DNA of 64,000 nucleotides from a virus. Its lineage: Duplodnaviria; Heunggongvirae; Uroviricota; Caudoviricetes. Made by a program: the position numbers and the translations under genes. This document shows, one piece after another, positions 491 to 28,298 of this stretch (the first letter of the stretch is position 1; each line of letters starts with the position of its first letter). The stretch is from the IMG/VR virus record IMGVR_UViG_3300034104_004745, positions 64,001-128,000 of that record, one strand, 5' to 3'. The notes beneath the pieces are model-generated. The model worked only from the letters and a program-made list of their open reading frames with translations. It was not told the origin of the DNA and did not search any database.

Positions 491-1522
491 TTATATTAAA
501 TTATTTATTGTCTTAGGAATATATAAATCTACGATGTCGTGCATATTATGGGTACACCCGTATTTTTTATTTATTTTAACCAATTCTATTAAGAACTTAT
601 CAAATTCGGGGTGATTGTGTGACCAAATTTGTTTTAATCTAAATTCCCCTTCTGAATATGTACCCCAGTTGTCTATTTTATTAAAAAATATGTTTACGTT
701 GTTTTTAAAGATTTTCATTATCATTACATAAAAATCCCACATTTCCGTATAATTTGTGTCTTGAACAACAAATGACACATTTTTTTTATTCATGGGGATT
801 TTTGATATAAATTTTAAATTTTCAATCAGGGTTTCCCAATTACCACCTCGTCTAACCACCTCGTACGTTTCTTTTTTACTGGCGTCTACACTAATTTCAA
901 TGGTTTTTATTAAATGGTGTATATGGGATAATTTATCCCACATTTGCTTATTTAAAAGCAACCCGTTGGTGTGTAAGTGAATGTGATTTAGTCTTGGATA
1001 CTTATTAAGGTCAATATTAAATAAAAAATTTCTAAATGTTTTGGATGCAAATGGGTCAGATGTCCCTGAAAGGTATATTAGTTCAACACTGTCGCTGAAC
1101 TGAGTGATAACCTCGTTTAGTTTTGATTCAACAAAATCAATTTCGGAACCATTTGCCATTATCATTGAAGTCCTACATGTTGGGCAGGATAAATTACAAC
1201 TTCTGTCAAATGCGAAATTTAAGCTTTTGGGACCGTTTTTATATTTTTCTAAGTTAAAATCTTCTTTTTTAATAAATTTTGATGGTGGTCTCTTTGTTGA
1301 AATAAAACTAGATAGATATGGGCAAGCTGTTTTAGAACAATATTTATATGACCCATCTAAAATAGAATCTTGTACTTTTGTTAATTGATCTCCACCCCAA
1401 ACCTGACTTAATGAATTACCAACATTATTAGGTAGCCAGGTTGGGCAACAACTATGTGTACTATTTTTATGTATTTCCAAGTACATAAAAGGTGTGGGGC
1501 ATACATAATCATTCAACTTCAT
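491..1522 (-). CDS. Radical SAM protein with N-terminal twitch/SPASM-like domain
   Basis: CNLSCPTC (CxxxCxxC), N-terminal C..P....SCC..C..C, SGTSDPF in place of GGEP, HTNG, ISVD. Confidence 0.9.
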   Translation of the reverse strand: MKLNDYVCPTPFMYLEIHKNSTHSCCPTWLPNNVGNSLSQVWGGDQLTKVQDSILDGSYKYCSKTACPYLSSFISTKRPPSKFIKKEDFNLEKYKNGPKSLNFAFDRSCNLSCPTCRTSMIMANGSEIDFVESKLNEVITQFSDSVELIYLSGTSDPFASKTFRNFLFNIDLNKYPRLNHIHLHTNGLLLNKQMWDKLSHIHHLIKTIEISVDASKKETYEVVRRGGNWETLIENLKFISKIPMNKKNVSFVVQDTNYTEMWDFYVMIMKIFKNNVNIFFNKIDNWGTYSEGEFRLKQIWSHNHPEFDKFLIELVKINKKYGCTHNMHDIVDLYIPKTINNLI

Positions 1523-1526
1523 TGGG

Positions 1527-2174
1527 TTATATTAAATAAGCATGCGGTGATTCACCTTTATCAAGTCTAACTCTATTTTTATCGGCTAAAACAAATTTAT
1601 TATAAATCACGTCATTGAGTTCTACACCAACATATCTTAATATGTCTTTAACAACCGATTTGTTTCTATCCGTATAAATGTCTTCAAAATAAAATATTGG
1701 GTATCCATTTTCGGATAAGCCATGTAGTTTTTTAGACTCTTCGATTAATATTTTTTTTCTATATTCAATATCACTTTCCTCAATACCAGAAAAATCATAA
1801 TATTGTCTTTTATGCCAATCTCCCTTTGTACCTTTTATTGCATGGTATACAAAACTTTCACTTTGTAGAGTTTTATCTTTTCGGTCTAAAAGTATTATTT
1901 TTTCAAAATAATTGAAAAACCAATCCCAATACATTTCATCATTATTTAAAAAACCATTTGGTCGATGAACGTCGTTTAAAAATGTTTTAATGAAAACATT
2001 ATTTTTATTTTCATAAAAACTAGGTAAATAAACATTTCTATTTTTTAATTCGTATAGATATTGATTAAATGGCTCGCAGTGGCTGGTATAATTTAAAGAA
2101 TCTAAATGTTCTTTAATAAGGTAAAAAAGTGTTGTTGATCCGGTTCTTTCGCTACCTAATATTGCAATTCTCAT
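1527..2174 (-). CDS. PAPS-dependent sulfotransferase-like protein
   Basis: N-terminal ILGSERTGSTTL (5'-PSB loop), EPFN, LDRKD (3'-PB region), FEDI. Confidence 0.75.
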   Translation of the reverse strand: MRIAILGSERTGSTTLFYLIKEHLDSLNYTSHCEPFNQYLYELKNRNVYLPSFYENKNNVFIKTFLNDVHRPNGFLNNDEMYWDWFFNYFEKIILLDRKDKTLQSESFVYHAIKGTKGDWHKRQYYDFSGIEESDIEYRKKILIEESKKLHGLSENGYPIFYFEDIYTDRNKSVVKDILRYVGVELNDVIYNKFVLADKNRVRLDKGESPHAYLI

Positions 2175-2695: not shown

Positions 2696-2722
2696 TTGTA
2701 ATGGTTGATTTTTTGTTTATTA

Positions 2723-3253
2723 CTATATGATTTTTAATTTACCATTTTTTATTTGTGATTTTCTAAAAAAAACCAATATAATGTTTCTAATCCCTTCTTT
2801 TATTTCATAAAGCTCATGTTCAAATATTGATTCAAAAAAATAACAGTTACCAATAATTTTTTGAAAATTAAATATTTCGGTATTATTAGTAATGTTCTCA
2901 ATAATAAATTCTCCTCCCTCAAAATCATCATTTAATAATAAACCTAACCCATATAATCTGTTATGAATACTATCGTTGTGCCTATTAAATTTATCTCCCT
3001 TAACATATGTTTGTAAATAAAACTCTTTACTATCCGTATTTTCCCAATCAATAGAAATATTAAATTCTTCGTTTATCCACAATATAAATCTATCTAATAT
3101 CCACTTATCTTCAACGTCATTCATATTTTTATAAGTGTAACTTATACTTGACTTACGTATTTGATTTCCATCGATAGGTTTCAGTTCATACTTTTTTAAA
3201 ATCAAATCACACTCTTCTTTTGAAAAAAGTATCTTTTGTTTTGGTGTAGTCAT
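2723..3253 (-). CDS. 2OG-Fe(II) oxygenase (start probably M13 at 3253)
   Basis: HND...LNDDFEGGEF...HEL...R. The track start at 3289 overlaps the upstream gene. Confidence 0.85.
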   Translation of the reverse strand: MTTPKQKILFSKEECDLILKKYELKPIDGNQIRKSSISYTYKNMNDVEDKWILDRFILWINEEFNISIDWENTDSKEFYLQTYVKGDKFNRHNDSIHNRLYGLGLLLNDDFEGGEFIIENITNNTEIFNFQKIIGNCYFFESIFEHELYEIKEGIRNIILVFFRKSQIKNGKLKII

Positions 3254-3254
3254 A

Positions 3255-3986
3255 TTATATAATAGATTTAGTTCTTTTAAAAGCGCCATCTACGTATTTG
3301 TCAACAAATTCTATCAATTCTGGTGTTTTTGTTATCGCACAGTAATCTATTTTTGTTTGATTAACGTGTGATAATTTGAAATCAACATTAAGTTTTTCAG
3401 ACATATAATCTTCAAATTCCTCTATTCTATCAAAATGAAATTCCTTAACTTTTACTGTATCGTTTAATATCCAATTATATTGTGAAATAAATGTCAATAT
3501 ATGAAGTGAAAAACGATGAACAAATTTATTATCTTTTTTCAATTCTTCGGGAAATTCTAATTCATCAATTAATTTAAGAAAAAGTTTTTTTACTGTATCA
3601 TTATCTCCATACGCGTTAATGAAATCATTATAATTGTTTTTTATAAAATTAATTAAAAATTCATTGTTTTTATTTTTCATTTTATCTAACGTAAAAGAAT
3701 CTAATAACTCGGAAGATTGTGCAATAAAAAATTTCCACGCTGAAATAAATCTATCTGTTGAATTTCTTAGTATACAAACGTAATCTAAATTATCCCCAAA
3801 TGTTCTAATTAAAGATTGTACTTTTGTATGAATATGTTTATTTTTTTGCCCATCCTCCTTCATTGTATTTTCCCATAAAATATTGGTATATTTTAAATCG
3901 AAATTGTATTCCTTACAGGTAAATTCTACTGACCATGATGCGTTTTTTGGTATTGGGATGAACGCAATTTTATCATTTATGACCAT
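3255..3986 (-). CDS. Sulfotransferase family 2-like protein
   Basis: FIPIPKNASWS (PKxAS 5'-PSB) and LRNSTDRFISAW (RxPxxRxxS-like 3'-PB). Confidence 0.8.
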   Translation of the reverse strand: MVINDKIAFIPIPKNASWSVEFTCKEYNFDLKYTNILWENTMKEDGQKNKHIHTKVQSLIRTFGDNLDYVCILRNSTDRFISAWKFFIAQSSELLDSFTLDKMKNKNNEFLINFIKNNYNDFINAYGDNDTVKKLFLKLIDELEFPEELKKDNKFVHRFSLHILTFISQYNWILNDTVKVKEFHFDRIEEFEDYMSEKLNVDFKLSHVNQTKIDYCAITKTPELIEFVDKYVDGAFKRTKSII

Positions 3987-3989
3987 TTA

Positions 3990-4553
3990 TTATATAAAAC
4001 TTTTAGTATTTTTAACAACATCTTTTATTTGGAATCCTAATGTTAAAGTTATTCTAGGTTTTTCACCTATTACGGGGGTACTGCCATGTTTAACTTTACC
4101 CGCAACACATCTCCACACCATCCTTTCCTTTAATTCATTTATTTTACCGTTATATATGGAATGTCCTCCTTGTTCGGGATAAGATAGTATAATATTATAT
4201 CTGACATGTGTATACCCATCCACATTCATATCAGTATGTGTGTGAATTGATCCGCCCTCTCTATTAATACCAATGGCATCTTCAAAATTTGGGTCTAATA
4301 TCCAATCGTTAATTTTTTCTACTTCAATTACCCTATCCTTTATCTTTTTTACTATATCTAATGGGGAATTTGGTATCCTATTTAATACACCGATTTGTCT
4401 AGAACCGTATGGTGCATTTATGGTATGACTATTTGTTGTGTTTATTTCAAATAGATGTGAATTAGAATTTGTCCAAAATAAAAGAATTTCTTGTTCTTCG
4501 TTTGTTATAAATTCCTCATAACCATAGGTGTCATTCAACTCTATGTGTTTCAT
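3990..4553 (-). CDS. 2OG-Fe(II) oxygenase
   Basis: HTD...HGSTP...RITL motifs. Confidence 0.85.
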   Translation of the reverse strand: MKHIELNDTYGYEEFITNEEQEILLFWTNSNSHLFEINTTNSHTINAPYGSRQIGVLNRIPNSPLDIVKKIKDRVIEVEKINDWILDPNFEDAIGINREGGSIHTHTDMNVDGYTHVRYNIILSYPEQGGHSIYNGKINELKERMVWRCVAGKVKHGSTPVIGEKPRITLTLGFQIKDVVKNTKSFI

Positions 4554-4569
4554 AAGTTAATTTTATAAT

Positions 4570-4692
4570 TTATTGACTCGTAATGTCAGTATAAATAAGA
4601 GTTGCAACCTCTTGCATTATGGTTGCAACATTTGTATTAGTTGTACCACTTGTTGGTACAACTTCTGATGATAAAATTTTTGGTTTTGACAT
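4570..4692 (-). CDS. Small 40-aa Ser/Thr-rich ORF (MSKPKILSSEVVPTSGTTNTNVATIMQEVATLIYTDITSQ)
   Basis: ATG at 4692 after an A-rich leader fills the gap between the 511-aa gene and the oxygenase. The longer 81-aa version in the track overlaps the upstream gene. Confidence 0.5.
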   Translation of the reverse strand: MSKPKILSSEVVPTSGTTNTNVATIMQEVATLIYTDITSQ

Positions 4693-4714
4693 TTTTTTAT
4701 AATTTATAAATTTA

Positions 4715-6250
4715 TTATTCTTTAGGAACTCTTTCTCCTCCGCCGCCACAATAAGAGCAACTGTTACACGACCACCAACTACATCCACCACCAGAACACC
4801 AGCTGTAACACGCATTATGTTGTATAAATGCTAAACCTAAAGTTTCATCTAAAACCGGTAGGAATACATCACTTTGTTCAACATTTATATCAAATATCAT
4901 TCTATTTACATAAACCACCTCTAAATTTGTTATTTTAGATTTAGTTAACGTATCATTAATATAATCATAAAACACAATGGAATCATCTATTCTAAATGTA
5001 TTTGTTAATGCATATGTGGTACGAAGTGTATCAAACTCTTCAATAATCATGTTACTACCAGGTAAATCTTCATATGTTAAACCATTTTCTAAAGTGACTT
5101 TAATCATTAAACATTCTTTTTGAGCTCCACTTATTTCTTCAACTATTGTTGATGAAGTTGTAAATACTGTAAGGTCGTCTGTAAAATTATTACTGTTCAC
5201 TCCAGGTATAAAATTTGGGATGCCGTCGATTAATTCATCGTCAAGGGGTACCCACGGAAGTAGTAATGTTTTTAATGTACTATTAATCGTTATTTGACTT
5301 GGTAACACTAAATCACCTTCACCATTTAAAATTTTTGTATCATTGTCTAAAATGTAAATCTCACCAAGGGTATTTGGTGATTTAGTCATCCATAGTACTC
5401 TAGATGATTGTGACATCAAACCATTTGAATCATACTCTGTTGGCCATTCATCATGTTTAACTTGTGAAGTCATTATATATGACCCCAAATGTAAACAACT
5501 AAGTGTTCCTCCATATAATATATCTAAACTTCTAATTACACCCATTTTTTCATTCACAATATTATCAGAATGAGTGTGATACTCTTCCATGTATTCCGAT
5601 TCAATTAATGATTCTTTCAATAATTGTAAATTTTCTAATGATGTGATTTTATACAATTTCGGATATGTAACAAGATTTCTATTAGGATATCTAGGTTTAA
5701 CAATGTAATTTGGTGTATCTCCATTTGTAATATGTAAATCGGTTAATTGGTCAATATTTAAATAGGTATCAACATTAGATGAATAGAATATGTTTGGTGA
5801 ATATGATTTATTTTGAATCAATCTATGAAAATTAACTTTATCTTTCGTATATTCTTCATCCACAACCGCTGTGGTATCATATGATGTTCTTATGATTAAT
5901 GTGTTATCACCGTCCTCAATATATGGAACCGTTATTGAATTATGTGCCACTTGGTGAAAGGTAAATGAACCATCTAAATCACCTATAATTTCTTCCATTT
6001 TATCTTTGATGGTAACATCATTAAGATTCGTACTAAATGCACCATCTTTTTCACTATAAATGATATTTCCCTCAGTTACAATAAGATGTAAATTATTTAT
6101 GGAATTATCTATCAAAAATTGCCTAAAAGAGTCCCAATCTAAATTTGGTACGATTTTATTATGTACATCAACATTCGTATTTGTTTCAATTATTCTTAGA
6201 TTTCCGTTTGAATCTTTTAATAGATCCGTACCAATTATTACTGCTTTCAT
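4715..6250 (-). CDS. Circularly permuted ATP-grasp + Hint (intein-like) domain + C-terminal six-Cys peptide fusion
   Basis: N-terminal GTD..D.NG..IIETN, then DK, IVKP, EEY, R. Hint-like region ILDNDTKIL...IKVTLENG...IFDINVE...FIQHN, followed by ACYSWCSGGGCSWWSCNSCSYCGGGGERVPKE. Confidence 0.7.
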   Translation of the reverse strand: MKAVIIGTDLLKDSNGNLRIIETNTNVDVHNKIVPNLDWDSFRQFLIDNSINNLHLIVTEGNIIYSEKDGAFSTNLNDVTIKDKMEEIIGDLDGSFTFHQVAHNSITVPYIEDGDNTLIIRTSYDTTAVVDEEYTKDKVNFHRLIQNKSYSPNIFYSSNVDTYLNIDQLTDLHITNGDTPNYIVKPRYPNRNLVTYPKLYKITSLENLQLLKESLIESEYMEEYHTHSDNIVNEKMGVIRSLDILYGGTLSCLHLGSYIMTSQVKHDEWPTEYDSNGLMSQSSRVLWMTKSPNTLGEIYILDNDTKILNGEGDLVLPSQITINSTLKTLLLPWVPLDDELIDGIPNFIPGVNSNNFTDDLTVFTTSSTIVEEISGAQKECLMIKVTLENGLTYEDLPGSNMIIEEFDTLRTTYALTNTFRIDDSIVFYDYINDTLTKSKITNLEVVYVNRMIFDINVEQSDVFLPVLDETLGLAFIQHNACYSWCSGGGCSWWSCNSCSYCGGGGERVPKE

Positions 6251-6271
6251 TATTATTTTTTATTATTTATA

Positions 6272-6287: not shown

Positions 6288-6929
6288 TTAAATTAACGAT
6301 GAGGTCTTCTTAACGAATTCCAAACCAATATTTCCCGCTAAAACTATTCTATCAATTGTCGAATTTGGGGCATTTTTAGGAGAATGGGGTACATCTGCTT
6401 GCATAATTATTAATTCGTCTTCCTCAGGTTTAACCCAATATTCGACACCTTTTTTATTTTTAAAGTACAATACCCCATCATCACCATTCATAACATCAGG
6501 CATTTGAATATAATAAACAAAGGTAAAGTCGGGGTGGAACGTCTTTAATTTTTTATTAATATCCGTATGGACGTGGTATTTGTCGACATTATTTTTCCAA
6601 AATTCTGTTTGCACTGGTTTTTTATGTCTAATTCGATTTACCCAAGTTTCTAGGTTAACTTTATTAAAAGGGATGTTATCATCCTCGTATATTTTTTTAC
6701 ACTCATTAATTCCTATTTGTGTAATTTCGTCCATTTTATTTGATATATTCAATTCACCTGATGAATTTATAGAGTCCGTCCAATATATAACACCAAATCC
6801 ATCATGTTTAGATTCCGGTTGGGACTTTATTATTTTGTTAGCCTCTTCCAATAAAGAATCTTTGTATTTTACCAAATTTAATTTTTTTTTCCATATAAAT
6901 GTATTTTCATCAAAGTATATTTTTTTCAT
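6288..6929 (-). CDS. Putative 2OG-Fe(II) oxygenase (TIGR02466-like type)
   Basis: HVHTD, FTFVYYIQMP, G.L.F, PHSP, RIVLAGN. Confidence 0.75.
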   Translation of the reverse strand: MKKIYFDENTFIWKKKLNLVKYKDSLLEEANKIIKSQPESKHDGFGVIYWTDSINSSGELNISNKMDEITQIGINECKKIYEDDNIPFNKVNLETWVNRIRHKKPVQTEFWKNNVDKYHVHTDINKKLKTFHPDFTFVYYIQMPDVMNGDDGVLYFKNKKGVEYWVKPEEDELIIMQADVPHSPKNAPNSTIDRIVLAGNIGLEFVKKTSSLI

Positions 6930-7534
6930 AATAAAACTTTAGTCTCTATTTTTTTATAAAAATTGGTTCCGTTAAATGTTGTATATTTCAACTCAAATTC
7001 ACCGTTTTTAAAATGAAGATTTTTATATGGTAATGCTTCATATTCCGCATCTGTCAATTTATGCCTAACCGCATTAAATACATTATCTTTAACTGGCGTT
7101 GAAAAAAAACCAACTATGGTTCCCTGTTTACAATTTGGTTTTACATAATCTAAAAATTTAGAAATATTTGGGTCCCTATGTGTGTCATGTAAAATACCGT
7201 CAAACTTTGATTGTAGTGTTGGTAAAACATTAATCCAATCACCTAAAATTATTTTTACTTTTGGTTTGTCTTGTGCCCATTTTAATGCGCTTTTAAACAT
7301 TTCGGGGTGTATTTCAATTATTGTATGTGATGTTATATTTGGATTAGACTGAATTCCGTCAGCAGATAAATGCATACCAAAACCAATTTCAAGTATATCT
7401 CCACCATTTTTTGTTACTATTTCTGCTAACCTATACATTAAAGATTTTTCCCCTTTATGCATTACCCAATCTTTTTCTAAATTTGTAATTCTAATCTCAT
7501 CGTCAGATATTATTACTTTTTCTGTTCCCTTCAT
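6926..7534 (-). CDS. Class I SAM methyltransferase, guanidinoacetate-MT/RMT2-like
   Basis: GGDILEIGFGMHLSA, HTIIEIHPE, ILGDW, FDGILHDT. Confidence 0.8.
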   Translation of the reverse strand: MKGTEKVIISDDEIRITNLEKDWVMHKGEKSLMYRLAEIVTKNGGDILEIGFGMHLSADGIQSNPNITSHTIIEIHPEMFKSALKWAQDKPKVKIILGDWINVLPTLQSKFDGILHDTHRDPNISKFLDYVKPNCKQGTIVGFFSTPVKDNVFNAVRHKLTDAEYEALPYKNLHFKNGEFELKYTTFNGTNFYKKIETKVLL

Positions 7535-7756
7535 TTATAAAATATTCTTATTTTTTAACCCATACTTAATCCACCTATACCATACCCTTTCATGAATATA
7601 ATATTGAATTGGTTTATATACTAATTCAGCAACACCAAATGCTGCGCCAACCTTAATCGAACCACTTATCCACCACATTATAATAAACCCAATTAGGGTG
7701 CTTATAACACGGTACGAAATGGTTTTTGCAATGTGTCTTTTACGTTCTACTACCAT
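7535..7756 (-). CDS. DUF2061-like small membrane protein
   Basis: RHIAKTISYR...two hydrophobic segments...YYIHERVW. Confidence 0.75.
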   Translation of the reverse strand: MVVERKRHIAKTISYRVISTLIGFIIMWWISGSIKVGAAFGVAELVYKPIQYYIHERVWYRWIKYGLKNKNIL

Positions 7757-8102
7757 CTGAATTTATTAATTTATTTCTTATTGCAGTTCCACTTATTTCA
7801 GCAATTTCTGTGGGTGGTTCGTGATAAATAACCTCGTATCCAACCCCTCTACCATAATTAACCGATTCAATATCTGGGATAATAGATACGAGAATCTTAT
7901 CAAAATTATTGTTGAAGAAAGGTTCTTGTATTAACATCTGAAAAACTTCTTGTGCCGTCTTTGGGTTGTTTTCGTCAACTTCAACATCTCTAATAGCAAC
8001 CCATACATTTTTACCTTGGTTTAATTGTTGATTAATCAACCATTCGTGACCTTTGTGCCAGTTCTGCCATCTACCGATGTATAGTGCGTATTTTTTACTC
8101 AT
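7740..8102 (-). CDS. HIGH-family nucleotidyltransferase (NadM/cytidylyltransferase-like)
   Basis: IGRWQNWHKGH and C-terminal ISGTAIR. Confidence 0.8.
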   Translation of the reverse strand: MSKKYALYIGRWQNWHKGHEWLINQQLNQGKNVWVAIRDVEVDENNPKTAQEVFQMLIQEPFFNNNFDKILVSIIPDIESVNYGRGVGYEVIYHEPPTEIAEISGTAIRNKLINSDGSRT

Positions 8103-8533
8103 AATGTTATGTTTTTTAATAATTTATAATATGAATCTGTTTCATTATCTGTTGTTGTGTCAATATCAATAAAGTTTTCTGTTGGTGCTTCATATTCAGT
8201 AACGTGAAATGATTCACGACCTCTAATTTCAGAAGTGTGAACATATATTTCAATAACAGAATTTTGTGATTTAAAACGATCTCTTTGATCTTTATACGGT
8301 GCAACCAATGAAACAACAACGTCGAATCCTTTGCTATTCATAAATTGAGCAATATATTGAGCTCTTTCGACATTCGCACGTCTACCATACTCACTATAGT
8401 CCTTATTATTGAATGCGTTTCGTAAATCGTCACCATCAATGTGGATGACATTGTCTTTAGGGAAGTGTTCCACTAAATATTTTGCTAATGTGGTCTTACC
8501 AGCACCTGGTTGACCTGTAAACCAGTATATCAT
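8099..8533 (-). CDS. cysC: Adenylyl-sulfate (APS) kinase (start probably M10 at 8533)
   Basis: WFTGQPGAGKTT, IDGDDLR, R.ANVER, VVSLVAPY...RDR, YEAP. Confidence 0.9.
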   Translation of the reverse strand: MIYWFTGQPGAGKTTLAKYLVEHFPKDNVIHIDGDDLRNAFNNKDYSEYGRRANVERAQYIAQFMNSKGFDVVVSLVAPYKDQRDRFKSQNSVIEIYVHTSEIRGRESFHVTEYEAPTENFIDIDTTTDNETDSYYKLLKNITL

Positions 8534-8579
8534 ACTATTAATATAAGGAATTATTTTCAAATAATCAAATAATCAAATA

Positions 8580-8696
8580 TCAATGATTATATGTAAATGG
8601 GTCGCGTTTTTTTAATTCTTCCATCTTTTTTTTATGGATTCTTTTACGTTTATACTCTTTAATTTTGGACATTAACCAATTTATTAGTTTTTTCAT
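8580..8696 (-). CDS. Small basic 38-aa protein MKKLINWLMSKIKEYKRKRIHKKKMEELKKRDPFTYNH
   Basis: Not in the track. ATG at 8696, TGA at 8580-8582; fills the intergenic gap. Confidence 0.6.
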   Translation of the reverse strand: MKKLINWLMSKIKEYKRKRIHKKKMEELKKRDPFTYNH

Positions 8697-9501: not shown

Positions 9502-9513
9502 ATTATTTTAAAT

Positions 9514-11190: not shown

Positions 11191-11244
11191 TTACACATAT
11201 ACTTCTAATTTAAATATACGGATAAAAATAGTAAAAAAAGAGTC

Positions 11245-11451
11245 TTAAACTGTAATTATTTCAAAATAATGGTATTTTTCACCATTTAATTCTAATACAA
11301 CCACATCAATTTCTTCACTTAGTTCACTTATCATTAAATTATCTTTAAGATATTCTAATGCTAATTCTTTAGTCTCAAACGAATTATCTAATAATTCTAA
11401 GTCTCCTGTACCAAATTCGGTCCTTTTTAATGCATTGATTTTATAAGCCAT
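11245..11451 (-). CDS. Hypothetical protein
   Basis: 68-aa ORF preceded by the TATTTATA motif at 11467-11474. Confidence 0.65.
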   Translation of the reverse strand: MAYKINALKRTEFGTGDLELLDNSFETKELALEYLKDNLMISELSEEIDVVVLELNGEKYHYFEIITV

Positions 11452-11476
11452 AGTTTTTGTTTTTTATATAAATACT

Positions 11477-12208: not shown

Positions 12209-12225
12209 TAATGTTTATTTTTTAT

Positions 12226-12254
12226 AATATAATGTTTAAAACACATTTTATCAA
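12226..12254 (-). promoter_or_regulatory. Possible sigma70-like promoter TTGATA-N17-TATATT
   Basis: Read directly upstream of the ATG at 12208; AT-rich context lowers significance. Confidence 0.3.
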
Positions 12255-12278
12255 TGTTTACTAAATATAAATACAAAT

Positions 12279-14749: not shown

Positions 14750-14750
14750 A

Positions 14751-20101: not shown

Positions 20102-20104
20102 ATT

Positions 20105-20686
20105 TTAAATTTTATGTATAAAGTTACAGTTTCCTGTTAGATCAAAGCTTTTATTGTGAATGTACTTTTCAAAAGTATGTTCAGCTATTATTTCATTGTC
20201 TTTCTCAATTAAGAGATATTCTAATATAAATGAAAAATAGTTTAAATTAAAGCCGTTTTGTGGGAAATTACCTGAGCCAAATATTATGTGAGATTCATTA
20301 TTTCTCGCTAATTTCTCAATGATTTCATGACTTATTAGTACCTCATCATTTATTGATAAAGTAATATTATTATCGATCTTATTTATTTCTAAAACAGTTA
20401 TTTTATTGGGTTCTAGAGAAAAATTAGCTTGTAGATACTTTGAATCTTTAGTGTTATCAGTTAATATCAATGTAACATAATTTTGATCAAAATCAACACC
20501 AAAATATGATGGTAATTTAGAAAATAATGTAGATCTTTTTTCTATCTTTTCCTCAGTTTTAAAGATCATTTTAAATTTAAAATTACCATCGTAATCAAAG
20601 ATTTTATTAGCGGGAAAATCAATAAAATTCGCGACTAAAATATCGGGCCACATTAGCCAAGGTTCACCTTTATTTATTTTTAACAT
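20105..20686 (-). CDS. Hypothetical protein, possible LamG/concanavalin-like beta-sandwich (start probably M31 at 20686)
   Basis: Beta-rich pattern ITLSINDEV...IIFGSG..P....F resembling the LamG inserts of the neighbouring GT7 genes. Confidence 0.5.
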   Translation of the reverse strand: MLKINKGEPWLMWPDILVANFIDFPANKIFDYDGNFKFKMIFKTEEKIEKRSTLFSKLPSYFGVDFDQNYVTLILTDNTKDSKYLQANFSLEPNKITVLEINKIDNNITLSINDEVLISHEIIEKLARNNESHIIFGSGNFPQNGFNLNYFSFILEYLLIEKDNEIIAEHTFEKYIHNKSFDLTGNCNFIHKI

Positions 20687-22052
20687 AATTGTATAATTTT
20701 TCAAATTCTGGAAAGGTTTCCAAAAAATTAGTTCCTCTTCTTCTATCATGTTCGTCAACAAATAAAATAAAATCATTTCTATTTAAGTCTACATTGAAAT
20801 CATCTTCACTTATTGAATAATCATATAGTCTCTTTATTTTTTGTACTTCGACGTCTGAAAATCCATAATTGTCATGATTAAAACTAGGTGATGCATGATA
20901 AAACACCTTTTTAGCCATATCTAAAATTAAATCTTTATGATCTTTTTCTAGAATTTTAACAGACATGTGGGAAGGCCACCTTAAATAGGTGGTATCTAAC
21001 TGCACAGCAGATATCCAATATCTTTGTCCGTTATGATATTTCTTTTTTAGTTCGAAAACTTTATCTATAAGTTTTGAATAACCAAAAACAGACATTGCAT
21101 TAAATGTTGCCATTATATTTATTGTTACTTTAGGTAATTCACTCAAAATATATTCAACATTTTCTAAAAATAGATCAAAATTTAAACCATTTCTAATATA
21201 TTCGGCTTGACTACCCCATGACTCACAGGAAGTAAAAATAATAAATTCATTTACCTTTTTTTCATTTATTATTATTTTTGCTTTCTCAACAAATTTCTCA
21301 ATTAAACTTTTAGGTGAACCTAAATTAGTGTTAATGGAGAAATTAAGTTGTCTATTTGGGTTTTCATTTGTACATAAAAAATCTAAAACTTCCCAAGTAT
21401 CTTTAGATAATAATGGTTCACCACCAGTAATTCTGAATGTATGTAAGTCTCTATATAATTCTGGCCACCAATTCCAAAAAGAATCTACATAAGGATTTTG
21501 TTCGGAATGTTTATATGGCATTTGACCAGATTTTCTTAAATGCTCAATTTCATTGAACTTAAATGAAGTTGGATAAGCACCATAACGTTCGATCTCCTCC
21601 ACCCATTTGGACGAAAATGACGGGCCACAATATGAACATTTGAAGTTACATGTATTTGAGAAACTTACTTCAACATATTTTGGATTATAATTTGCTCTCC
21701 AGTCTGCTGTTTTAATTTCATTTAAAAATGGTTTAGACCACGGTTCACTACTTTTAAAAATTCTATCTGAATGTGAATTTGAATTCTCTTCAATTTTCCA
21801 ACAATAGTTACATTCACCTGGTTTTATACCAGATAACATTTCTTTTCTAACCTCCTTTTTGTACCTAGTATTATGTAAAGCTGTTGGATTGTTTTTTATT
21901 TCACTTAAAGGTATTTTATGTGGTGTTGGATGATGACAAGAATGTGTCATACCATTATGTAAATGCATTGTTACTTGCGTCCATTTTGCAAGACAAAACC
22001 CACAACCAACACTGTCTAATTTTTCTTTTATATCGTCGTGATCTCTTTTCAT
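20670..22052 (-). CDS. N-terminal twitch radical SAM protein (C..KW/SCH subtype)
   Basis: FCLAKW...SCHHP, CNYC, CNFKCSYC, TGGEP, NTN. Confidence 0.92.
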   Translation of the reverse strand: MKRDHDDIKEKLDSVGCGFCLAKWTQVTMHLHNGMTHSCHHPTPHKIPLSEIKNNPTALHNTRYKKEVRKEMLSGIKPGECNYCWKIEENSNSHSDRIFKSSEPWSKPFLNEIKTADWRANYNPKYVEVSFSNTCNFKCSYCGPSFSSKWVEEIERYGAYPTSFKFNEIEHLRKSGQMPYKHSEQNPYVDSFWNWWPELYRDLHTFRITGGEPLLSKDTWEVLDFLCTNENPNRQLNFSINTNLGSPKSLIEKFVEKAKIIINEKKVNEFIIFTSCESWGSQAEYIRNGLNFDLFLENVEYILSELPKVTINIMATFNAMSVFGYSKLIDKVFELKKKYHNGQRYWISAVQLDTTYLRWPSHMSVKILEKDHKDLILDMAKKVFYHASPSFNHDNYGFSDVEVQKIKRLYDYSISEDDFNVDLNRNDFILFVDEHDRRRGTNFLETFPEFEKLYNYVKNK

Positions 22053-23443
22053 TTCATTTTTACATTTATGAATTTTGTATTTTCATATTGATTACTATCA
22101 ATATTAATAATATCTAATGTGTTCAATACTTGCTTCAAACCATCATTTTTATAATCAATTTTTTTCTGCTGCATTTCAGTAACAAATCTTTTTTCATTCC
22201 TAGCGGTTGTTTCACCTTTAGCCCATGTGCCATTAACAAATCCTTCATCTATATGTGGTAAACAATAAAATTTACTCTCTCTTCTATATGGTACAACATT
22301 TTCAATAATTTCAATATCCTCATTTGTAAATGTGACATTTTGATTAACAAAATCTTGAGAATTGAAGTCACAATCTAATACCAAATTTTCTTTATTATCG
22401 GCTAAGTCAGATATGTTTGAAAAATACTTGTTATATATTTTCACATCACATATTTTCCCTTTGTAATAGACATTAGAATGGTTGCAGAACCCAAGTAAAA
22501 ATGGCTTAACGGAATCGTGAGCTTTTAAATCATTTTTAACAGGAAATGGGATATTTTGTTTCACACCATTCATTTGACTAATCAATTCGTCATTTACATA
22601 AAAGTATGCATTTTTTTCTTCATTATCAAAACTAAAAACTATTTGTGTCCACATACCCTCAAATCTCTTAGCCCAGTTATAATGATGCATCCCATTTCTA
22701 TCAAACAATTGCATAGTAACTGCTCTAGAATTATTAAAAGAAACCCCCCAGGTCCAGCTTCCGTCTTTTCTAATTAATGGATACTCAATGAATTTCTTTT
22801 CAACATCACCCACAAGCCAAATTGGGACTTTATGGTCTTGTTGTTCCGCATTGAATGTGATGGTTATTGTATGGTCGCCGTGTAAACAAGAACTTATTTC
22901 TCTGTTCGTTGATATTGCTAGATAAGAATTATCACCATTAAAATTAGCAACCAATTTATCAGCTACTTTTTTAATTATTCGACCAGTTGTTAGAGACTCA
23001 AAATAACATCTCCAAAATAGATCATCATCTTCCTGTCCCCAATCCCAATAATCATTTGAATATCCGTTTGTTAGATATGCTTGTTCTTTATTAAACAACA
23101 CAACACCACCGAAGTACTGATCATAACCTAAATTATAACCGTACTTTGATAATTTAGTTGCGATATGTATCGGTGTTTCTTCCGGATAAGAATAGTCCGC
23201 TTCTTGATCTGGTAGCATATCAACATCGTGCCAGGCTATGTAATCACAACCATCTTCAAATGCAATATGTGCTGCAATATTTTTCATTGCACCGCGGTTA
23301 AATAATTTATCATCAATTTGATGTCCAACATAAAAGGAATGTTCGATACCTCTTTCATTTAAATGTTTGGTTAAATGTGGTATCAATCTATCGATATGTT
23401 CTTTTCTGTTTCTATATGGTATACAAATTCCTAATTTATGCAT
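22049..23443 (-). CDS. GT7 (beta-1,4-galactosyltransferase-like) glycosyltransferase with inserted LamG domain
   Basis: IPYRNR, FNRG..KN, HDVD, YFGGV, NGYSN.YW.WGQEDDD; then FNG..SYL...W..IV...FYVN...F.LG...YYKGKI.DV.IY; then LPH...DGL. Confidence 0.85.
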   Translation of the reverse strand: MHKLGICIPYRNRKEHIDRLIPHLTKHLNERGIEHSFYVGHQIDDKLFNRGAMKNIAAHIAFEDGCDYIAWHDVDMLPDQEADYSYPEETPIHIATKLSKYGYNLGYDQYFGGVVLFNKEQAYLTNGYSNDYWDWGQEDDDLFWRCYFESLTTGRIIKKVADKLVANFNGDNSYLAISTNREISSCLHGDHTITITFNAEQQDHKVPIWLVGDVEKKFIEYPLIRKDGSWTWGVSFNNSRAVTMQLFDRNGMHHYNWAKRFEGMWTQIVFSFDNEEKNAYFYVNDELISQMNGVKQNIPFPVKNDLKAHDSVKPFLLGFCNHSNVYYKGKICDVKIYNKYFSNISDLADNKENLVLDCDFNSQDFVNQNVTFTNEDIEIIENVVPYRRESKFYCLPHIDEGFVNGTWAKGETTARNEKRFVTEMQQKKIDYKNDGLKQVLNTLDIINIDSNQYENTKFINVKMK

Positions 23444-24870
23444 TATATTCCAACATTAACGTGTAAAATTTTATTATTGTATATTTCACCATATTCAATG
23501 AAATTTAAATCAGACAAACCATCTGTTTTCATTAATTGGATATTTTGTGAAACCTCATTATGAAACCTTAGTTGATTCCATCTCGTCGCCTGATCTTTCC
23601 AACGATTACCTAAAAATCCATTTTCTTCATGTTTTAAAGATTTAAATAATGATATTCTTCTGTATGGTATTTTAACTTTTACACTATAATCATATTTTTG
23701 ATTTATTATTTCGCAATTTACAATCTCCCCATCATTTCCATTATTTGTTAAATCTTTCAATTTATAATTTTCAATATGATCCGCATCATAGTATATTTTA
23801 AGTGAATCTTTTGACTTATATTCACCGAATGATTCATTTAAATAATGTTTCGTGTTGTGTGATATTTCTTTAATTTCATCATCAGTAAGAATGTCGTCAT
23901 AATAAGCGAAAGAATCTATTTTTCCATTAAAAAAATTAGGTATATTTTCTCTACCCGGATTACCAGCACCTAAATAAAAATTTGGTTCTTTTCTATAAAA
24001 ATATAATTTTTTAAATTGTTCAGTTTGGCCTAGAAATTCACCATCTTGGTATACTTTAATAACATTATTTTCTTTATCTAAAACAACTACCATATTTGTT
24101 TTATAGTTTGTTTTAATTTTAGAATTAATAAAATATGGTTTGTACAAATTATCAAAAGCGCAAAAATTATATCTCATAAATGAATTATAACAAATTGCAA
24201 AATCCCATCCTGGTATACTAAACACGGTGAACTCATCAGATTCTTTTTTATGGTTTAAAATATTCTTTTCCGGGTAAAAAGAAACAAAAAAAGTGGCATT
24301 ATTATTTAAATCTATTGTATTATCACAGTTAACGTAAGCATTAACACCATTGAAACTTAATGCGTTACCGACCCTACCAAAGTTTTTAAATTCAAGTGTG
24401 TCTAAGTCTAAACCATTAACTCTACATCTTAACAAAAGCTCGGTATCTTCATAACCCCATCCCCAATACTTGTTTGAATATCCATTAATTTTTTCAAAGT
24501 CTTCTATTGTGAACATTGTAACCCCACCAAAATATTCATCAAATATCTCTCTAGTTTTCTCACCTTTTTCCAATACAAAATTGGTTGCTAAATGTAATGG
24601 TTTTTTTGAATATGAATAATCAACATTTATTGGTAACATGTCAACATCATGAAAAACAATATAGTCACAGCCCAATTTTTTTGCATAGGTATACCCAATG
24701 TTTAATAACATTCCTCTATTGAACTGTTTAGCATTATCCTGATTGACTATAATAACATCATAATCAATTTCCCTATCTTTAAAATATTGAGTTATGTGAT
24801 TTGAAAATTTTTTTAAATCAGTTTCTCTATTTCTATAAGGAACAATAATACCTAGCTTATGCTTATCCAT
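23443..24870 (-). CDS. GT7 glycosyltransferase with inserted LamG domain (start probably M32 at 24870)
   Basis: VPYRNR, FNRGMLLN, HDVD, YFGGV, WGWGYEDTE, LamG-like insert (VYQDG...FYLGAG...FNGKID), LKH...DGL. Confidence 0.85.
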   Translation of the reverse strand: MDKHKLGIIVPYRNRETDLKKFSNHITQYFKDREIDYDVIIVNQDNAKQFNRGMLLNIGYTYAKKLGCDYIVFHDVDMLPINVDYSYSKKPLHLATNFVLEKGEKTREIFDEYFGGVTMFTIEDFEKINGYSNKYWGWGYEDTELLLRCRVNGLDLDTLEFKNFGRVGNALSFNGVNAYVNCDNTIDLNNNATFFVSFYPEKNILNHKKESDEFTVFSIPGWDFAICYNSFMRYNFCAFDNLYKPYFINSKIKTNYKTNMVVVLDKENNVIKVYQDGEFLGQTEQFKKLYFYRKEPNFYLGAGNPGRENIPNFFNGKIDSFAYYDDILTDDEIKEISHNTKHYLNESFGEYKSKDSLKIYYDADHIENYKLKDLTNNGNDGEIVNCEIINQKYDYSVKVKIPYRRISLFKSLKHEENGFLGNRWKDQATRWNQLRFHNEVSQNIQLMKTDGLSDLNFIEYGEIYNNKILHVNVGI

Positions 24871-25069
24871 TAATTGTTGGGTCTTTTGGTTTAACGGTAT
24901 TATGCCATTCTGATAAATAATATTGGATTCTATCGCTCCACTCCTGTTTATCAATTTCTTCAAACCAAATGGTTAACGCATCTAATGAATTTGCGATTTT
25001 TTCTAACGCTTTTACTTTTCTTTCTTCTAGTTTTTGAAGTTGTTCTTCTTTTTCTACTTTTGTGCTCAT
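24863..25069 (-). CDS. Hypothetical protein
   Basis: 68-aa ORF tightly coupled to both neighbours. Confidence 0.65.
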   Translation of the reverse strand: MSTKVEKEEQLQKLEERKVKALEKIANSLDALTIWFEEIDKQEWSDRIQYYLSEWHNTVKPKDPTING

Positions 25070-25917
25070 ATTGACATTATTTTTTTTATTAGTTTATCCC
25101 ATTGCCTATATCTTCTGTATTCTGCTTGACCATCACTGGATTCAAACATAAACTCTGGGTCGTTTAAATCAATTTTAAATTTTGTTTTAAAAAGTTCTTT
25201 ATACATTGTTCTATATTCATCAGAATATGCATATTCCTTACTTACTGATGCAACAGATTTTATTCTGTCTATAGATGTTTTATCCCATTTGAAATGATGA
25301 ACTTGAACAAATCTATGTGGGTGAATTAATGGGTGATTCCATCCTTGCCATCTCCACGTTGTTTGTCCATTTATTTTAGCATAATGCTGTCCTGCAGTTA
25401 TTTCAACATAACCTTTCATAACACAAACCTTATTAGGACAGGCTTTACTCATTGGATATCTAAAAAATCCCATATTGGGGAATTGTTTAAAAATATTAAC
25501 GTCGTCCTTTAGCTCTGAAAATTCACCATCTAGACCTATTCTGTCAATAAACCCACCCCTAACTAAATCCCAACCATATTCTTCACATGTTTTGATAATG
25601 TTGGCTAAACTATCATCTGGATATAAATGAAATTCATCAATATCGGCTATAACCCACCAATCATTTGGTTTTTTCGATTTAACCATATTGTATAGTGCAG
25701 TTACCTTTTCCCAATCAAAAGCACGATCTTCAATAGTTTTAACGATTTTTACATTTTTGTATTCTTTAACCAATTCTTTAACATCACTGATTAATGTAGG
25801 ATGTACAACAGATTGATAAACAATTAGTTGTATCTCGTCAACATACTTTGAATAATGTTCTACAAAATGTGGGATAAGGTTTGTTCCGTGACCTATAACT
25901 GATAAAGCTCTAATCAT
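25066..25917 (-). CDS. GT2-like glycosyltransferase
   Basis: IPHFVEHYSKYVD, WWVIADIDEF (DxD), NK, GQH, HHFKW. Confidence 0.7.
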   Translation of the reverse strand: MIRALSVIGHGTNLIPHFVEHYSKYVDEIQLIVYQSVVHPTLISDVKELVKEYKNVKIVKTIEDRAFDWEKVTALYNMVKSKKPNDWWVIADIDEFHLYPDDSLANIIKTCEEYGWDLVRGGFIDRIGLDGEFSELKDDVNIFKQFPNMGFFRYPMSKACPNKVCVMKGYVEITAGQHYAKINGQTTWRWQGWNHPLIHPHRFVQVHHFKWDKTSIDRIKSVASVSKEYAYSDEYRTMYKELFKTKFKIDLNDPEFMFESSDGQAEYRRYRQWDKLIKKIMSI

Positions 25918-26642
25918 TTTTTTCGGTTAATAATGGTGACACCGCTCGATGACGGTTTATCCATTAATATACGAAAATTATGTAAATTAATCAAGTTCCA
26001 GTCTGGATTTTCTTCAAGTTCTTTAACAAACTTGGATGGGCCATCAAAAGAGTGATGGTCTTTTTTTGCGTCTTCAGAAACTAATAAGGTTTCTTCATAA
26101 TTTGAATCGGTGTCATGAATAATGATAACCCCGTTGTCAGATAGTATTTTTGAATATAGATCAAAATCGGTTTTAACCCCTTCATAAGAATGGTCTCCAT
26201 CGATCCAAAGTAAATCTATTTTAATATCTTGTCTAATAAAAAAGTCATGGTAGGCATCGACTGAAGTCGCCTTAATAAGTCGCGGGTAAAACGTGCTCCT
26301 GAAGAATGAGGACTCGTTTTCAAGGTCGTTAGGGCCACCAATACCATTACAAGCATCGACAAGATAAGTGCTGCCAATATCCCCCCAATTATAATCACTG
26401 TTTCCATCAAATATTTTTTGTTTATGTAAATCAACTCTTGCTTGTGTCATTATTCTGGGAATGAAACCACCGCCAGACCCAATACAAACACAATTTTTTG
26501 CTCTCATATGCTGTATAAGAGAATACACAATAATACCGTCTCCCATATGTAAATCTGTGGCGCCATGCGTCCAGCGATAAGGTACAGGTTCATCATTATT
26601 GTTAGTGATGTTCTTTCTAATATATTCATTATTCGTTATCAT
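25914..26642 (-). CDS. Class I SAM methyltransferase (Methyltransf_24-like; start probably M7 via ATGA overlap)
   Basis: CIGSGGG, IDLLWIDGDHSYEGVKTDF, GVIIIHD. Confidence 0.85.
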   Translation of the reverse strand: MITNNEYIRKNITNNNDEPVPYRWTHGATDLHMGDGIIVYSLIQHMRAKNCVCIGSGGGFIPRIMTQARVDLHKQKIFDGNSDYNWGDIGSTYLVDACNGIGGPNDLENESSFFRSTFYPRLIKATSVDAYHDFFIRQDIKIDLLWIDGDHSYEGVKTDFDLYSKILSDNGVIIIHDTDSNYEETLLVSEDAKKDHHSFDGPSKFVKELEENPDWNLINLHNFRILMDKPSSSGVTIINRKK

Positions 26643-27382
26643 TTCATCCATTCTGGCCAAAACTCGGGTCTTGTATATCTTCTACTAACACTCTCCATTT
26701 TGTCTTTCAATATGTTATAAAGATCCAAATCTCTCTCAATATTGATTTCACATAATTTTGATGCAAGCTGTATTGATATACCTTCACCTGCGCCGTTTAT
26801 TTCTTTATTCATGTGTAAATCACAAAATTCTTTTGCTAATTGTAATTTTTCATAATATTCATAAAAAGACGTCTGATTAAATCCCTTTTTGTTAATTATT
26901 AAAAAATATTCCCATATTGTAGCGAAATCGCCATAATTAGGGTATAATTTATTAGCATATAAATGATATGAATTCCATTCTTGGCTTTCTGGTACAATTA
27001 GTTCTTTAACCCAAGCTTTTTTAGCTTTATGATTTTCTAATGTATCAATATAACTAATTCCTTCCTTAAAATCAAATATTTTTAATTTATTTAAAAGTGA
27101 ATAGTCTTTAATGTGTGTATCGGCATCGAGTAGAATACAAATATCGTGTTGTTTTAAAACATATTTAGGTAAAATCATTTTATCAGCATATGATTTATAT
27201 GTTCTATTGTATTCAAATACGTGAATGTTTGGTGTTGTAAATCTTTTTGTAAAATATTCTGTGTCTTCTGTTAATATGTAACAATCAAAACCATGTTCAA
27301 GAATATTATTTATTTTATCTACACTTCCTTTATAGTAATATTCTTCACCAAAACAGAAAATACCAAAACCTATGTTATTCAT
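26639..27382 (-). CDS. Putative glycosyltransferase-like protein (DxD)
   Basis: SYADK...ILLDADT, GEG motif; located in the glycosylation cluster. Confidence 0.45.
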   Translation of the reverse strand: MNNIGFGIFCFGEEYYYKGSVDKINNILEHGFDCYILTEDTEYFTKRFTTPNIHVFEYNRTYKSYADKMILPKYVLKQHDICILLDADTHIKDYSLLNKLKIFDFKEGISYIDTLENHKAKKAWVKELIVPESQEWNSYHLYANKLYPNYGDFATIWEYFLIINKKGFNQTSFYEYYEKLQLAKEFCDLHMNKEINGAGEGISIQLASKLCEINIERDLDLYNILKDKMESVSRRYTRPEFWPEWMK

Positions 27383-28295: not shown

Positions 28296-28298
28296 AGT

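Follow-up and report, generated by a model that had tools for sequence, protein, structure and literature searches.

The stretch of DNA analysed here (the window, 64,000 nucleotides) corresponds to bases 64001-128000 of a single IMG/VR virus record of 198,825 bp (CheckV completeness ~60%). It contains, at positions 491-27382, one block of ~32 co-oriented and tightly packed genes, many of them for apparent sugar-transferring and sugar-tailoring enzymes, with a fibre gene on either side. The G+C content is ~31%, and transcription in the window runs almost wholly on the minus strand, on which the cluster and its flanks lie. The genome also encodes a sigma factor, a tail sheath of T4 type (PF04984, 45.7 bits), and several giant fibres rich in Ser and Thr. 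An initial annotation, made from the letters alone, had read the block as a co-oriented, tightly coupled 27-kb glycan-tailoring cluster embedded in a fibre module, and our analysis supports that description: The cluster exists and is conserved, and its content goes beyond what was first listed. That first list had lacked the N-twitch family identity of the radical S-adenosylmethionine (SAM) enzymes, the recurring LamG lectin module, and two small conserved open reading frames (ORFs).

The minus strand encodes every ORF between 491 and 34460, and neighbours overlap or are separated by very short gaps. The upstream part of the block, from 27382 down to 12279, is a 15.1-kb core operon of 14 genes that overlap or lie no more than ~16 nt apart, without real gaps; wider gaps are limited to 12208/12279, 11451/11477, 11190/11245, 8560/8716, 6250/6288, and 2695/2723. 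The fibre genes expected on both sides are indeed present. Positions 3-449 hold the start of a 2184-amino acid (aa) fibre gene, whose product is 55% identical across 86 aa to the N terminus of the S74-chaperone fibre encoded at 29160-34460. The latter lies on the opposite flank (27420-34460; Pfam and BLAST), together with three paralogous genes of 142-161 aa and a 121-aa gene. Ser and Thr make up 24-31% of the flanking fibres as compared to a genome mean of 15%, and no collagen-like repeats that could explain oxygenases of the prolyl 4-hydroxylase (P4H) type were found in the fibres. The three paralogues (27810-29167) sit directly behind the S74 fibre, are 38-41% identical, each begin with MAN, and are taken as tip paralogues rich in Cys and Tyr; their homologues occupy the same place in a related viral contig (L034).

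The upstream motif that was said to be shared with structural genes also stands. The octamer TATTTATA, read in the sense orientation, occurs at 27391-27398, 9 nt upstream of the first core-operon gene (26639-27382), and copies lie 9-58 nt upstream of four cluster genes (26639, 11477, 11245, and 4715) and also precede the fibre genes at 29160, 46802, and 48890. Its raw count of 17 is not above chance (16.8 expected). Of these copies, 13 are in sense orientation, and most of those are intergenic by our reading, intergenic DNA being scarce.

Viral relatives were collected by scanning IMG/VR twice, with a radical SAM seed and with a GT7 seed, which gave 40 loci; exact protein look-up added three more, for a total of 43. 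Two of the glycosyltransferases in the core operon can be assigned firmly. Both the first (ORF 23443-24963, probable start 24867) and the second (22049-23443) exceed the Pfam cut-offs for Glyco_transf_7N and Glyco_transf_7C, contain a Laminin_G_3 domain, and carry DxD and WGxED(D/T) motifs, which makes them members of the GT7 galactosyltransferase-like family with an inserted LamG. In the first enzyme (7N 75, 7C 69, and LamG 34.5 bits), the motifs read DVD and WGYEDT, with the LamG inserted after WGYEDT; in the second they read DVD and WGQEDD. Against the PDB, the GT7 enzymes match beta4GalT7/T1 at E 1e-31 (5.6e-31 for the second). A LamG/ConA-like lectin fold recurs as a stand-alone protein (20105-20686; 193 aa from Met31), whose Atlas model matches LamG domains, including those of phage GT7 enzymes, with TM scores of 0.75-0.84, and also matches a viral Atlas cluster in which 55% of the members have a radical SAM domain. 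Its orthologues, likewise stand-alone, lie between the same two radical SAM genes in 20 loci. The transferases and the radical SAM enzymes thus share a lectin-fold module, which suggests that all of them act on one polymeric acceptor. A complex prediction for the stand-alone LamG protein with the radical SAM enzyme at 18533-20101 scored 0.01 and gave no verdict.

Upstream of the GT7 pair lie a class I SAM methyltransferase (25914-26660; Methyltransf_24, 50.1 bits against a cut-off of 26.3; orthologues in 18 loci) and a GT2-like glycosyltransferase near threshold (25066-25917; PF13704 (GT2_4), 26.0 bits against 27.5; orthologues in 24 loci). The first gene of the operon encodes a 247-aa product with a DxD motif that is a lead only for a GT8-like GT-A glycosyltransferase: Its Atlas neighbours are 100% viral, a minority of them bear GT8 or Mannosyl_trans3, orthologues occur in 5 loci, and Pfam and PDB sequence and profile searches gave no match. 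The best-conserved gene of the module encodes a small helical protein of 68 aa (24863-25069; 70-98% identity in relatives), which reaches 98% identity where its neighbours stay at 60-80%. Because the alignment shows a helical core without Cys, this protein is unlike a precursor of a ribosomally synthesized and post-translationally modified peptide (RiPP); could it instead be an adaptor or scaffold?

The remainder of the core operon is largely an array of radical SAM enzymes. Seven tandem genes (20670-22052, 18533-20101, 17277-18533, 15944-17296, 14751-15944, 13541-14776, and 12279-13544) each score 226-342 bits on NCBIfam NF033640 (N_Twi_rSAM; curated cut-off 170) and are members of that N-twitch family. 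The first of these, a 460-aa type with 335 bits, is common to Bdellovibrio and the Ralstonia phage RsoM2USA. An eighth, divergent enzyme at the far end of the block (491-1522) matches Pfam PF04055 with 43 bits and reaches 61 bits on NF033640, which places it outside the family; the eight radical SAM genes counted earlier are therefore all present. Residues C132, C136, and C139 (CxxxCxxC) as well as the N-terminal C7 and C26 are invariant in all eight, and C25, C77, and C80 are additionally invariant among orthologues of the 14751 gene. The N-terminal domain resembles the auxiliary-cluster domain of BtrN, with a SPASM/BtrN match at residues 7-86. Fold comparison of an AF2 model of the 14751-15944 product (pLDDT 85.7) placed viperin, PFL-activase, anSME, BlsE, and SkfB in a tie at Z 10.6-11.6. 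In pairwise BLAST, the N-twitch paralogues prove to be old, being 20-35% identical to one another, whereas each has its own orthologues at 60-90%. Since they are mutually divergent yet individually conserved, the seven paralogues are expected to have separate jobs rather than to be redundant. The alignment of all eight was too divergent to serve for a genome scan. In the Atlas, viral members make up 96-100% of the clusters that contain the radical SAM enzymes, the LamG protein, or the GT7-LamG enzymes, and the N-twitch family as a whole is large and almost wholly confined to viruses or Bdellovibrionota.

Downstream of the core operon, from 12208 to 491, lies a half rich in candidate tailoring enzymes. 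It contains a NodU/CmcH-family O-carbamoyltransferase (9514-11190; Carbam_trans_N 204 bits, C 210 bits), whose 168 bits on the NodU equivalog NF041651 (cut-off 1000) place it in the broader family only, and an APS kinase (CysC; 8099-8560; PF01583, 61.4 bits against a cut-off of 21.1; P-loop GQPGAGKTT). Coupled to CysC is a 120-aa nucleotidyltransferase-like protein with a HIGH motif (7740-8102; phrog_10255 'kinase', E 2e-9; CTP_transf_like, E 0.05). It aligns to profile positions 133-227 of 230 in phrog_10255, its homologues adjoin CysC in five relatives (L015, L043, L045, L130, and L131), and in other phages a similar protein may be fused to an APS-kinase-like part. An ATP sulfurylase, whether CysDN or Sat, was not recognised among the cluster genes, in a record that is ~60% complete. 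The gene at 3255-3986 probably encodes a sulfotransferase dependent on 3'-phosphoadenosine 5'-phosphosulfate (PAPS). It is Sulfotransfer_2-like at a Pfam E of 0.01, PF03567 is found on two of its orthologues, its invariant residues K14, S17/S19, R74, and S82 make up a Lys/Ser loop and an Arg...Ser motif, and the best 50 Foldseek matches of an AF2 model built from 21 orthologues (pLDDT 89.5) are all sulfotransferases, yet with E ≥ 0.045. A 215-aa protein (1527-2174) has sulfotransferase-like PAPS-loop motifs only (Sulfotransfer_3, E 0.13). For both candidates, PDB sequence and profile searches yielded nothing meaningful, and hhalign showed no relation between the two.

Four genes resemble 2-oxoglutarate (2OG)-Fe(II) oxygenases: one at 2171-2695 (2OG-FeII_Oxy_3, PF13640; 36.3 bits, above the cut-off of 27), its 27% identical paralogue at 2723-3289 (23.3 bits, just below 27), a P4H-type enzyme just under the cut-off at 6288-6929 (24.6 bits), and a weak candidate at 3990-4553 (PF13640, E 0.074, 14.5 bits). 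Also weak are a methyltransferase-like gene at 6926-7534 (Methyltransf_25, 20.3 bits against a cut-off of 27) and an SGNH/GDSL-like gene at 11477-12208 (PF00657, E 0.04; GDS motif at residue 9). The tally of the initial annotation survives in graded form. CysC and the carbamoyltransferase are both above their family cut-offs. Two of the glycosyltransferases are firm as GT7, with the GT2-like and GT8-like genes below threshold or a lead only. One of the two sulfotransferases is probable though sub-threshold and the other rests on motifs, one of two methyltransferases is firm and the other sub-threshold, a single 2OG oxygenase out of four exceeds its cut-off, and the SGNH call is sub-threshold with a motif.

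The same half holds several small or unassigned genes. A 68-aa protein with its own TATTTATA box (11245-11451) has an orthologue in the 318-kb relative L043, and a DUF6734-like gene (8716-9501; E 1.4e-4) has DUF6734 counterparts in the corresponding position of L043, L045, and L130. The DUF2061 gene (7535-7756; 58 bits, above cut-off) encodes a small membrane protein of 73 aa. An unannotated, very basic 38-aa ORF directly upstream of the APS kinase (8580-8696) fills an apparent 155-nt gap and has a near-identical copy at the same position in L043/L044. The gene at 4715-6250 encodes 511 aa with an N-terminal domain of unassigned family, a Hint-like part, and a Cys-rich tail; the product itself has no Pfam match, its L043 homologue matches PT-HINT and Intein_splicing, and it ends in ...QHNA followed by 31 residues with six Cys and Gly runs. 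It is plausible from these features that a self-cleaving Hint domain would release the Cys-rich tail. Next to it lies an unannotated 40-aa Ser/Thr-rich ORF (4570-4692) with a conserved C-terminal YTD(V/I)T, copies of which occur 18-680 nt upstream of the sulfotransferase-like gene in six relatives (L130-L132 and L134-L136). At 63-86% identity, it is better conserved than the sulfotransferase-like enzyme itself (51-55%), and its product could be a sulfated or glycosylated peptide. The 81-aa ORF listed at 4570-4815 is spurious and stems from a long upstream frame, the conservation being confined to the last 40 codons.

The check on synteny proposed earlier came out in favour of the cluster. The first 15 kb form a gap-free operon whose gene order is shared by ~40 viral contigs, in most cases next to genes for fibres or the tail sheath, which argues that the arrangement is not due to chance. 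Wherever the flank suffices, the order is methyltransferase, GT2-like gene, 68-aa gene, two GT7-LamG genes, the 20670-type radical SAM, the LamG protein, the 18533-type radical SAM, and further N-twitch enzymes. GT7 and N-twitch genes occur together in 27 loci, and the remaining loci are truncated by the end of a contig. Relatives of 200-320 kb also keep the tailoring half in order. In L043, DUF6734, a radical SAM gene, the 68-aa gene, carbamoyltransferase, and APS kinase are followed by a 126-aa gene, DUF2061, two 2OG genes, a 243-aa gene, and the Hint protein. In L130 (200 kb) and L131 (260 kb), the APS kinase is followed by the small nucleotidyltransferase-like gene, DUF2061, 2OG genes, the 511-513-aa protein, a 38-aa ORF, the sulfotransferase-like gene, and the 215-aa gene, beyond which L131 continues with more glycosyltransferases and an S74 protein and L130 with a 1466-aa gene of unconfirmed family. 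Because its order is kept in these three contigs, the tailoring half is not random baggage. Some relatives moreover add sugar-nucleotide enzymes, namely a UDP-Glc/GDP-Man dehydrogenase between the second GT7 and the radical SAM genes in L045 and NAD epimerase/dehydratase homologues in the clusters of L013, L016, L033, and L039, which ties the block to carbohydrate metabolism.

The position within the genome is likewise recurrent. In ten loci (L027, L028, L031-L037, and L040; L039 is an exception), the module is immediately preceded by fibre-like or S74 genes, which L015 and L131 have at the opposite end. A second lineage, comprising 14 loci, has the tail sheath and tube genes directly behind the array. 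Among cultured phages, the Ralstonia jumbo phage RsoM2USA (genes 349-361) encodes a 20670-type enzyme (RsoM2USA_349; 40% identity, E 4e-109) that lies 5 kb from the sheath and tube genes, with an NAD epimerase/dehydratase gene between sheath and tube; Pfam found nothing other than radical SAM among the neighbours of RsoM2USA_349. From these fibre, sheath/tube, and RsoM2USA positions, we conclude that the module belongs to the virion-structure part of several phage lineages. Searches of cultured phages by megablast with 9000-24000 and by tblastn with GT7 gave no match. As a side observation, the cultured 255-kb Vibrio phage K566 carries five distant N-twitch-like radical SAM genes (genes 303-308 and 322; 20-26% identity), the neighbours of which are all hypothetical.

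In 19 DNA runs, each with its own study code, half or more of the words sampled from 20000-29000 were present. Of these runs, 18 are labelled lake-water or freshwater and one aquatic, and one of them could be the sample from which the record came; the phage is hence common. In a polyA metatranscriptome run (X20), short exact contigs matched 24904-25339 and 27574-27818, such RNA-library contigs proving neither transcription nor timing.

N-twitch arrays are also found in bacteria. A scan of 185,579 species genomes returned 80 bacterial loci, overwhelmingly from Bdellovibrionota, with 2-7 genes in tandem per array; NF033640 members over the cut-off number 8, 10, and 11 in three such genomes, as compared to 0 in 14 control genomes. 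Among the 128 ORFs within 6 kb of the matches in 16 Bdellovibrionota chromosomal loci, 39 are radical SAM genes, and glycosyltransferases are the commonest other neighbours (9 GT2, 3 Glyco_transf_7C, and 2 PMT_2, in addition to 2 carbamoyltransferases). Of the 80 loci, 8 have a carbamoyltransferase homologue close to the array. Since the bacterial arrays independently adjoin glycosyltransferases, the family appears to work with sugar transferases. The clearest case is a 36-kb island in Bdellovibrio sp. HCB2-146 (L052, L126, and L127; contig 1, 1858482-1900943) with seven N-twitch enzymes, further radical SAM genes, at least six GT2 genes, and one GT7C protein. One of its members (L052:13781-15169) is very close to the 20670-22052 product (E 3e-130), and the island ends 2.4 kb from a 2001-aa S74-chaperone ORF, one of four such genes in 3.9 Mb. 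This neighbourhood is a striking parallel to the phage, yet it is an anecdote.

No transmembrane segments are predicted in any cluster enzyme, the only hydrophobic protein being the 73-aa DUF2061 product. Polytopic ORFs (at least three transmembrane segments) number 2 of 631 in the 43 viral loci, both of them small, as compared to 93 of 1046 in the bacterial loci. Neither the cluster nor the 43 viral loci hold an initiating lipid-linked phosphoglycosyltransferase, a flippase, a polymerase, or a GT-C enzyme, and the cluster does not have the make-up of a Wzx/Wzy- or ABC-type surface polysaccharide locus. A pathway without such functions is expected to be cytoplasmic, which fits either direct decoration of cytoplasmically synthesised proteins or the use of host export machinery. 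Together with the 96-100% viral Atlas clusters, this suggests a target that is cytoplasmic and specific to the virus.

Taken together, the enzyme families, operon structure, conservation, solubility, and genomic position point to a pathway in which soluble phage enzymes assemble a glycan in the cytoplasm and then tailor it heavily. We regard this assignment as well supported and likely. For the acceptor, virion fibre or tail proteins are the best single guess, although we would not put them at even odds. For the whole statement, namely that a soluble cytoplasmic pathway builds and tailors a glycan whose likeliest acceptors are Ser/Thr-rich fibre or tail proteins of the phage itself, we estimate a probability of roughly 0.4. 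We infer the following scheme, in its step order, acceptor, timing, and all of its chemistry. The core operon would lay down sugars through a GT-A set of the two lectin-bearing GT7 enzymes, the GT2-like enzyme, and possibly the GT8-like one, and the methyltransferase would then methylate them. The seven N-twitch enzymes would edit the sugars by oxidation, epimerisation, deoxygenation, or formation of C-C or C-X bonds, before the downstream half would attach carbamoyl, sulfate, hydroxyl, methyl, or acyl groups, with PAPS, made with the help of the phage APS kinase, as the presumed sulfate donor. The LamG modules may act as a shared handle that keeps the enzymes on a polymeric acceptor, and the fibre or tail proteins would be decorated before assembly.

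A number of points weigh against this picture. Several of the tailoring-enzyme calls are sub-threshold, and without a recognised ATP sulfurylase, PAPS would have to be supplied by the host or with the help of the small HIGH-motif protein. The tied fold matches of the modelled radical SAM enzyme span nucleotide-, sugar-, peptide-, and protein-acting enzymes, so that they do not single out a sugar substrate. An S74 gene lies near the array in only 2 of the 80 bacterial loci, and two genomes with 10-11 radical SAM copies (G002 and G003) have no S74 gene. The adjacency to fibres may only mirror the hypervariable fibre region of T4-like genomes, where accessory genes pile up, and the published interpretation of such fibre regions is modification of the host O-chain (PMC7029224).

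The latter interpretation, in its wider form, would have the enzymes alter lipid-linked O-antigen, capsule, or glycoprotein precursors of the host at the cytoplasmic face, with the host flippase and ligase exporting the glycan and with superinfection exclusion or reduced trapping of progeny on debris as the result. It is the published reading for glycosyltransferase/radical-SAM cassettes in the 'host recognition cluster' of pelagimyophages (PMC7029224). The neighbourhood of GT2 and PMT_2 genes in the bacterial relatives also speaks for it. Soluble glycosyltransferases acting on undecaprenyl-linked units are common, so that the solubility of the enzymes is compatible with this reading. We nevertheless judge it unlikely, given the lack of an initiating phosphoglycosyltransferase, flippase, polymerase, or ligase in the cluster and the 43 viral loci, the nearly exclusively viral occurrence of the module families in the Atlas, and the upstream box that cluster and fibre genes have in common; a lytic phage would also probably be short of time to replace a polymer on the outer surface. 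Quite improbable, in our view, is a soluble product that is released or packaged, either an aminoglycoside- or nucleoside-like metabolite or a modified small peptide, with the 40-aa ORF at 4570-4692 or the Cys-rich tail of 4715-6250 as peptides to be sulfated, glycosylated, or cross-linked. A BtrN-like twitch radical SAM, a TobZ-type carbamoyltransferase, glycosyltransferases, and methyltransferases do recall aminoglycoside clusters, the 40-aa ORF is the better conserved partner of the sulfotransferase-like enzyme in six relatives, and its conserved Tyr beside an Asp may resemble contexts of Tyr sulfation. Against this, the Pfam and profile matches of the cluster include no cyclitol synthase, aminotransferase, RRE/PqqD domain, leader peptidase, other peptidase, transporter, or exporter, and polymeric acceptors suit the LamG modules better. 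The radical SAM/GT7 core mostly has no 4715 homologue or peptide within reach of the locus, and the small ORFs and the Cys-rich tail, although present, are not distributed in step with the radical SAM core. Support for a possible RiPP-type or small-molecule product is hence thin.

More doubtful still is direct radical modification of fibre or tip-adhesin proteins, by cross-links or by epimerised or oxidised residues, with the glycosyltransferases acting separately. The fold ties with anSME, SkfB, CteB, and SuiB and the location beside fibres and three Cys/Tyr-rich tip paralogues speak for it. An RRE domain is absent, however, the coupling between radical SAM and glycosyltransferase genes is strict in viruses and bacteria alike, and arrays occur in bacterial genomes without S74 fibres. 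Hypermodification of DNA, in which hydroxymethyl-pyrimidine bases would be glycosylated, carbamoylated, or otherwise decorated against restriction, had been disfavoured from the start and now appears highly improbable. Some DNA modification clusters do contain 2OG oxygenases and glycosyltransferases. The 2OG enzymes here are of P4H type, though, the cluster sits in the structural rather than the nucleotide-metabolism module, and no altered pyrimidine hydroxymethylase or TET/JBP enzyme was found beside the transferases, as would be expected for 5-hydroxymethylcytosine (5hmC) or 5-hydroxymethyluracil hypermodification. The sole thymidylate-synthase homologue lies 36 kb away and is a canonical ThyA (318 bits) that keeps the dUMP-specific Asn (PFNIASY), and the TET/JBP search returned no match, its control being uninformative. 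Phage carbamoyltransferases of the same Pfam families make 5-carbamoyloxymethylcytosine, yet those flanked by glycosyltransferases were found on unmodified contigs (PMC8670742).

Returning to a glycan on virion proteins, a more specific and speculative version, to which we give only a small chance as a whole, is that the GT7-LamG/N-twitch module with its PAPS, carbamoyl, and 2OG extension forms a dedicated system that decorates adhesive fibres post-translationally, both tail fibres in phages and phage-like S74 fibre adhesins in predatory Bdellovibrio. After assembly of the glycan on the fibre, radical SAM enzymes, each held by a lectin module, would rewrite it in place, yielding a sulfated and carbamoylated sugar coat. 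If true, such a coat would be of a kind not known in any virus. More generally, if the product sits on virions, this would be a first sign of phages sulfating, carbamoylating, and radically editing their own surface glycans, which would bear on host recognition, on how well virions resist proteases and grazers, and on their stickiness in lake water. With seven distinct and individually conserved paralogues, the operon holds promise of new radical chemistry on sugars or glycoproteins, and with culturable handles in Ralstonia phage RsoM2USA and Bdellovibrio sp. HCB2-146, the question is testable.

How does this block compare with known systems? Virus-encoded glycosylation of virions is established for giant-virus fibrils, chlorovirus capsid glycans, and the capsids and tails of mycobacteriophages, which rely on their own cytoplasmic glycosyltransferases and methyltransferases. 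To our knowledge, none of these systems involves radical SAM arrays, PAPS-dependent sulfation, or carbamoylation. The seven array members agree with NF033640 in having an N-terminal auxiliary Cys cluster followed by a CxxxCxxC core; what differs is that the array is wired to GT7/LamG genes and that it is accompanied by the eighth, below-cut-off enzyme. Our literature search found no experimental study of this catalogued family and no paper on the N-twitch/GT7-LamG link or on phage-encoded glycan sulfation. Compared to animal beta4GalT7 and beta4GalT1, with which their catalytic N-terminal two-thirds align, the phage GT7 enzymes are soluble, lack a signal anchor, are of viral origin, and have ~200 aa of LamG before the C-terminal segment.

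The parallel with Nod-factor tailoring (NodU, NodH, NodPQ, and NodS) drawn in the initial annotation holds as an analogy in the types of decoration, with carbamoyl, PAPS-derived sulfate, and methyl groups implied on a sugar backbone made in the cytoplasm, and does not extend to membership: NodABC chitin-oligomer genes are absent here, the carbamoyltransferase falls short of the NodU equivalog cut-off, the sulfotransferases are sub-threshold, and the Nod systems have no counterpart of the radical SAM, GT7, and LamG proteins. The 5hmC carbamoyltransferases share their Pfam domains with the phage enzyme and co-occur with thymidylate-synthase-like genes rather than with glycosyltransferases (PMC8670742); the present gene stands in a glycosyltransferase context, with no adjacent thymidylate-synthase-like hydroxymethylase, deaminase, or MazG gene. 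Closest in setting is the 'host recognition cluster' of pelagimyophages and cyanomyophages, described from gene content only and proposed to modify the host O-chain (Zaragoza-Solas et al. 2020; PMC7029224). It is likewise a large hypervariable region of aquatic T4-like myophages with tail fibres, glycosyltransferases, and radical-SAM cassettes, so that the co-occurrence of the latter two in fibre regions of such phages is already known as gene content. The ordered GT7-LamG/N-twitch core, the PAPS/carbamoyl/2OG half, the absence of export genes, and the link to Bdellovibrionota are what the present block adds to that picture.

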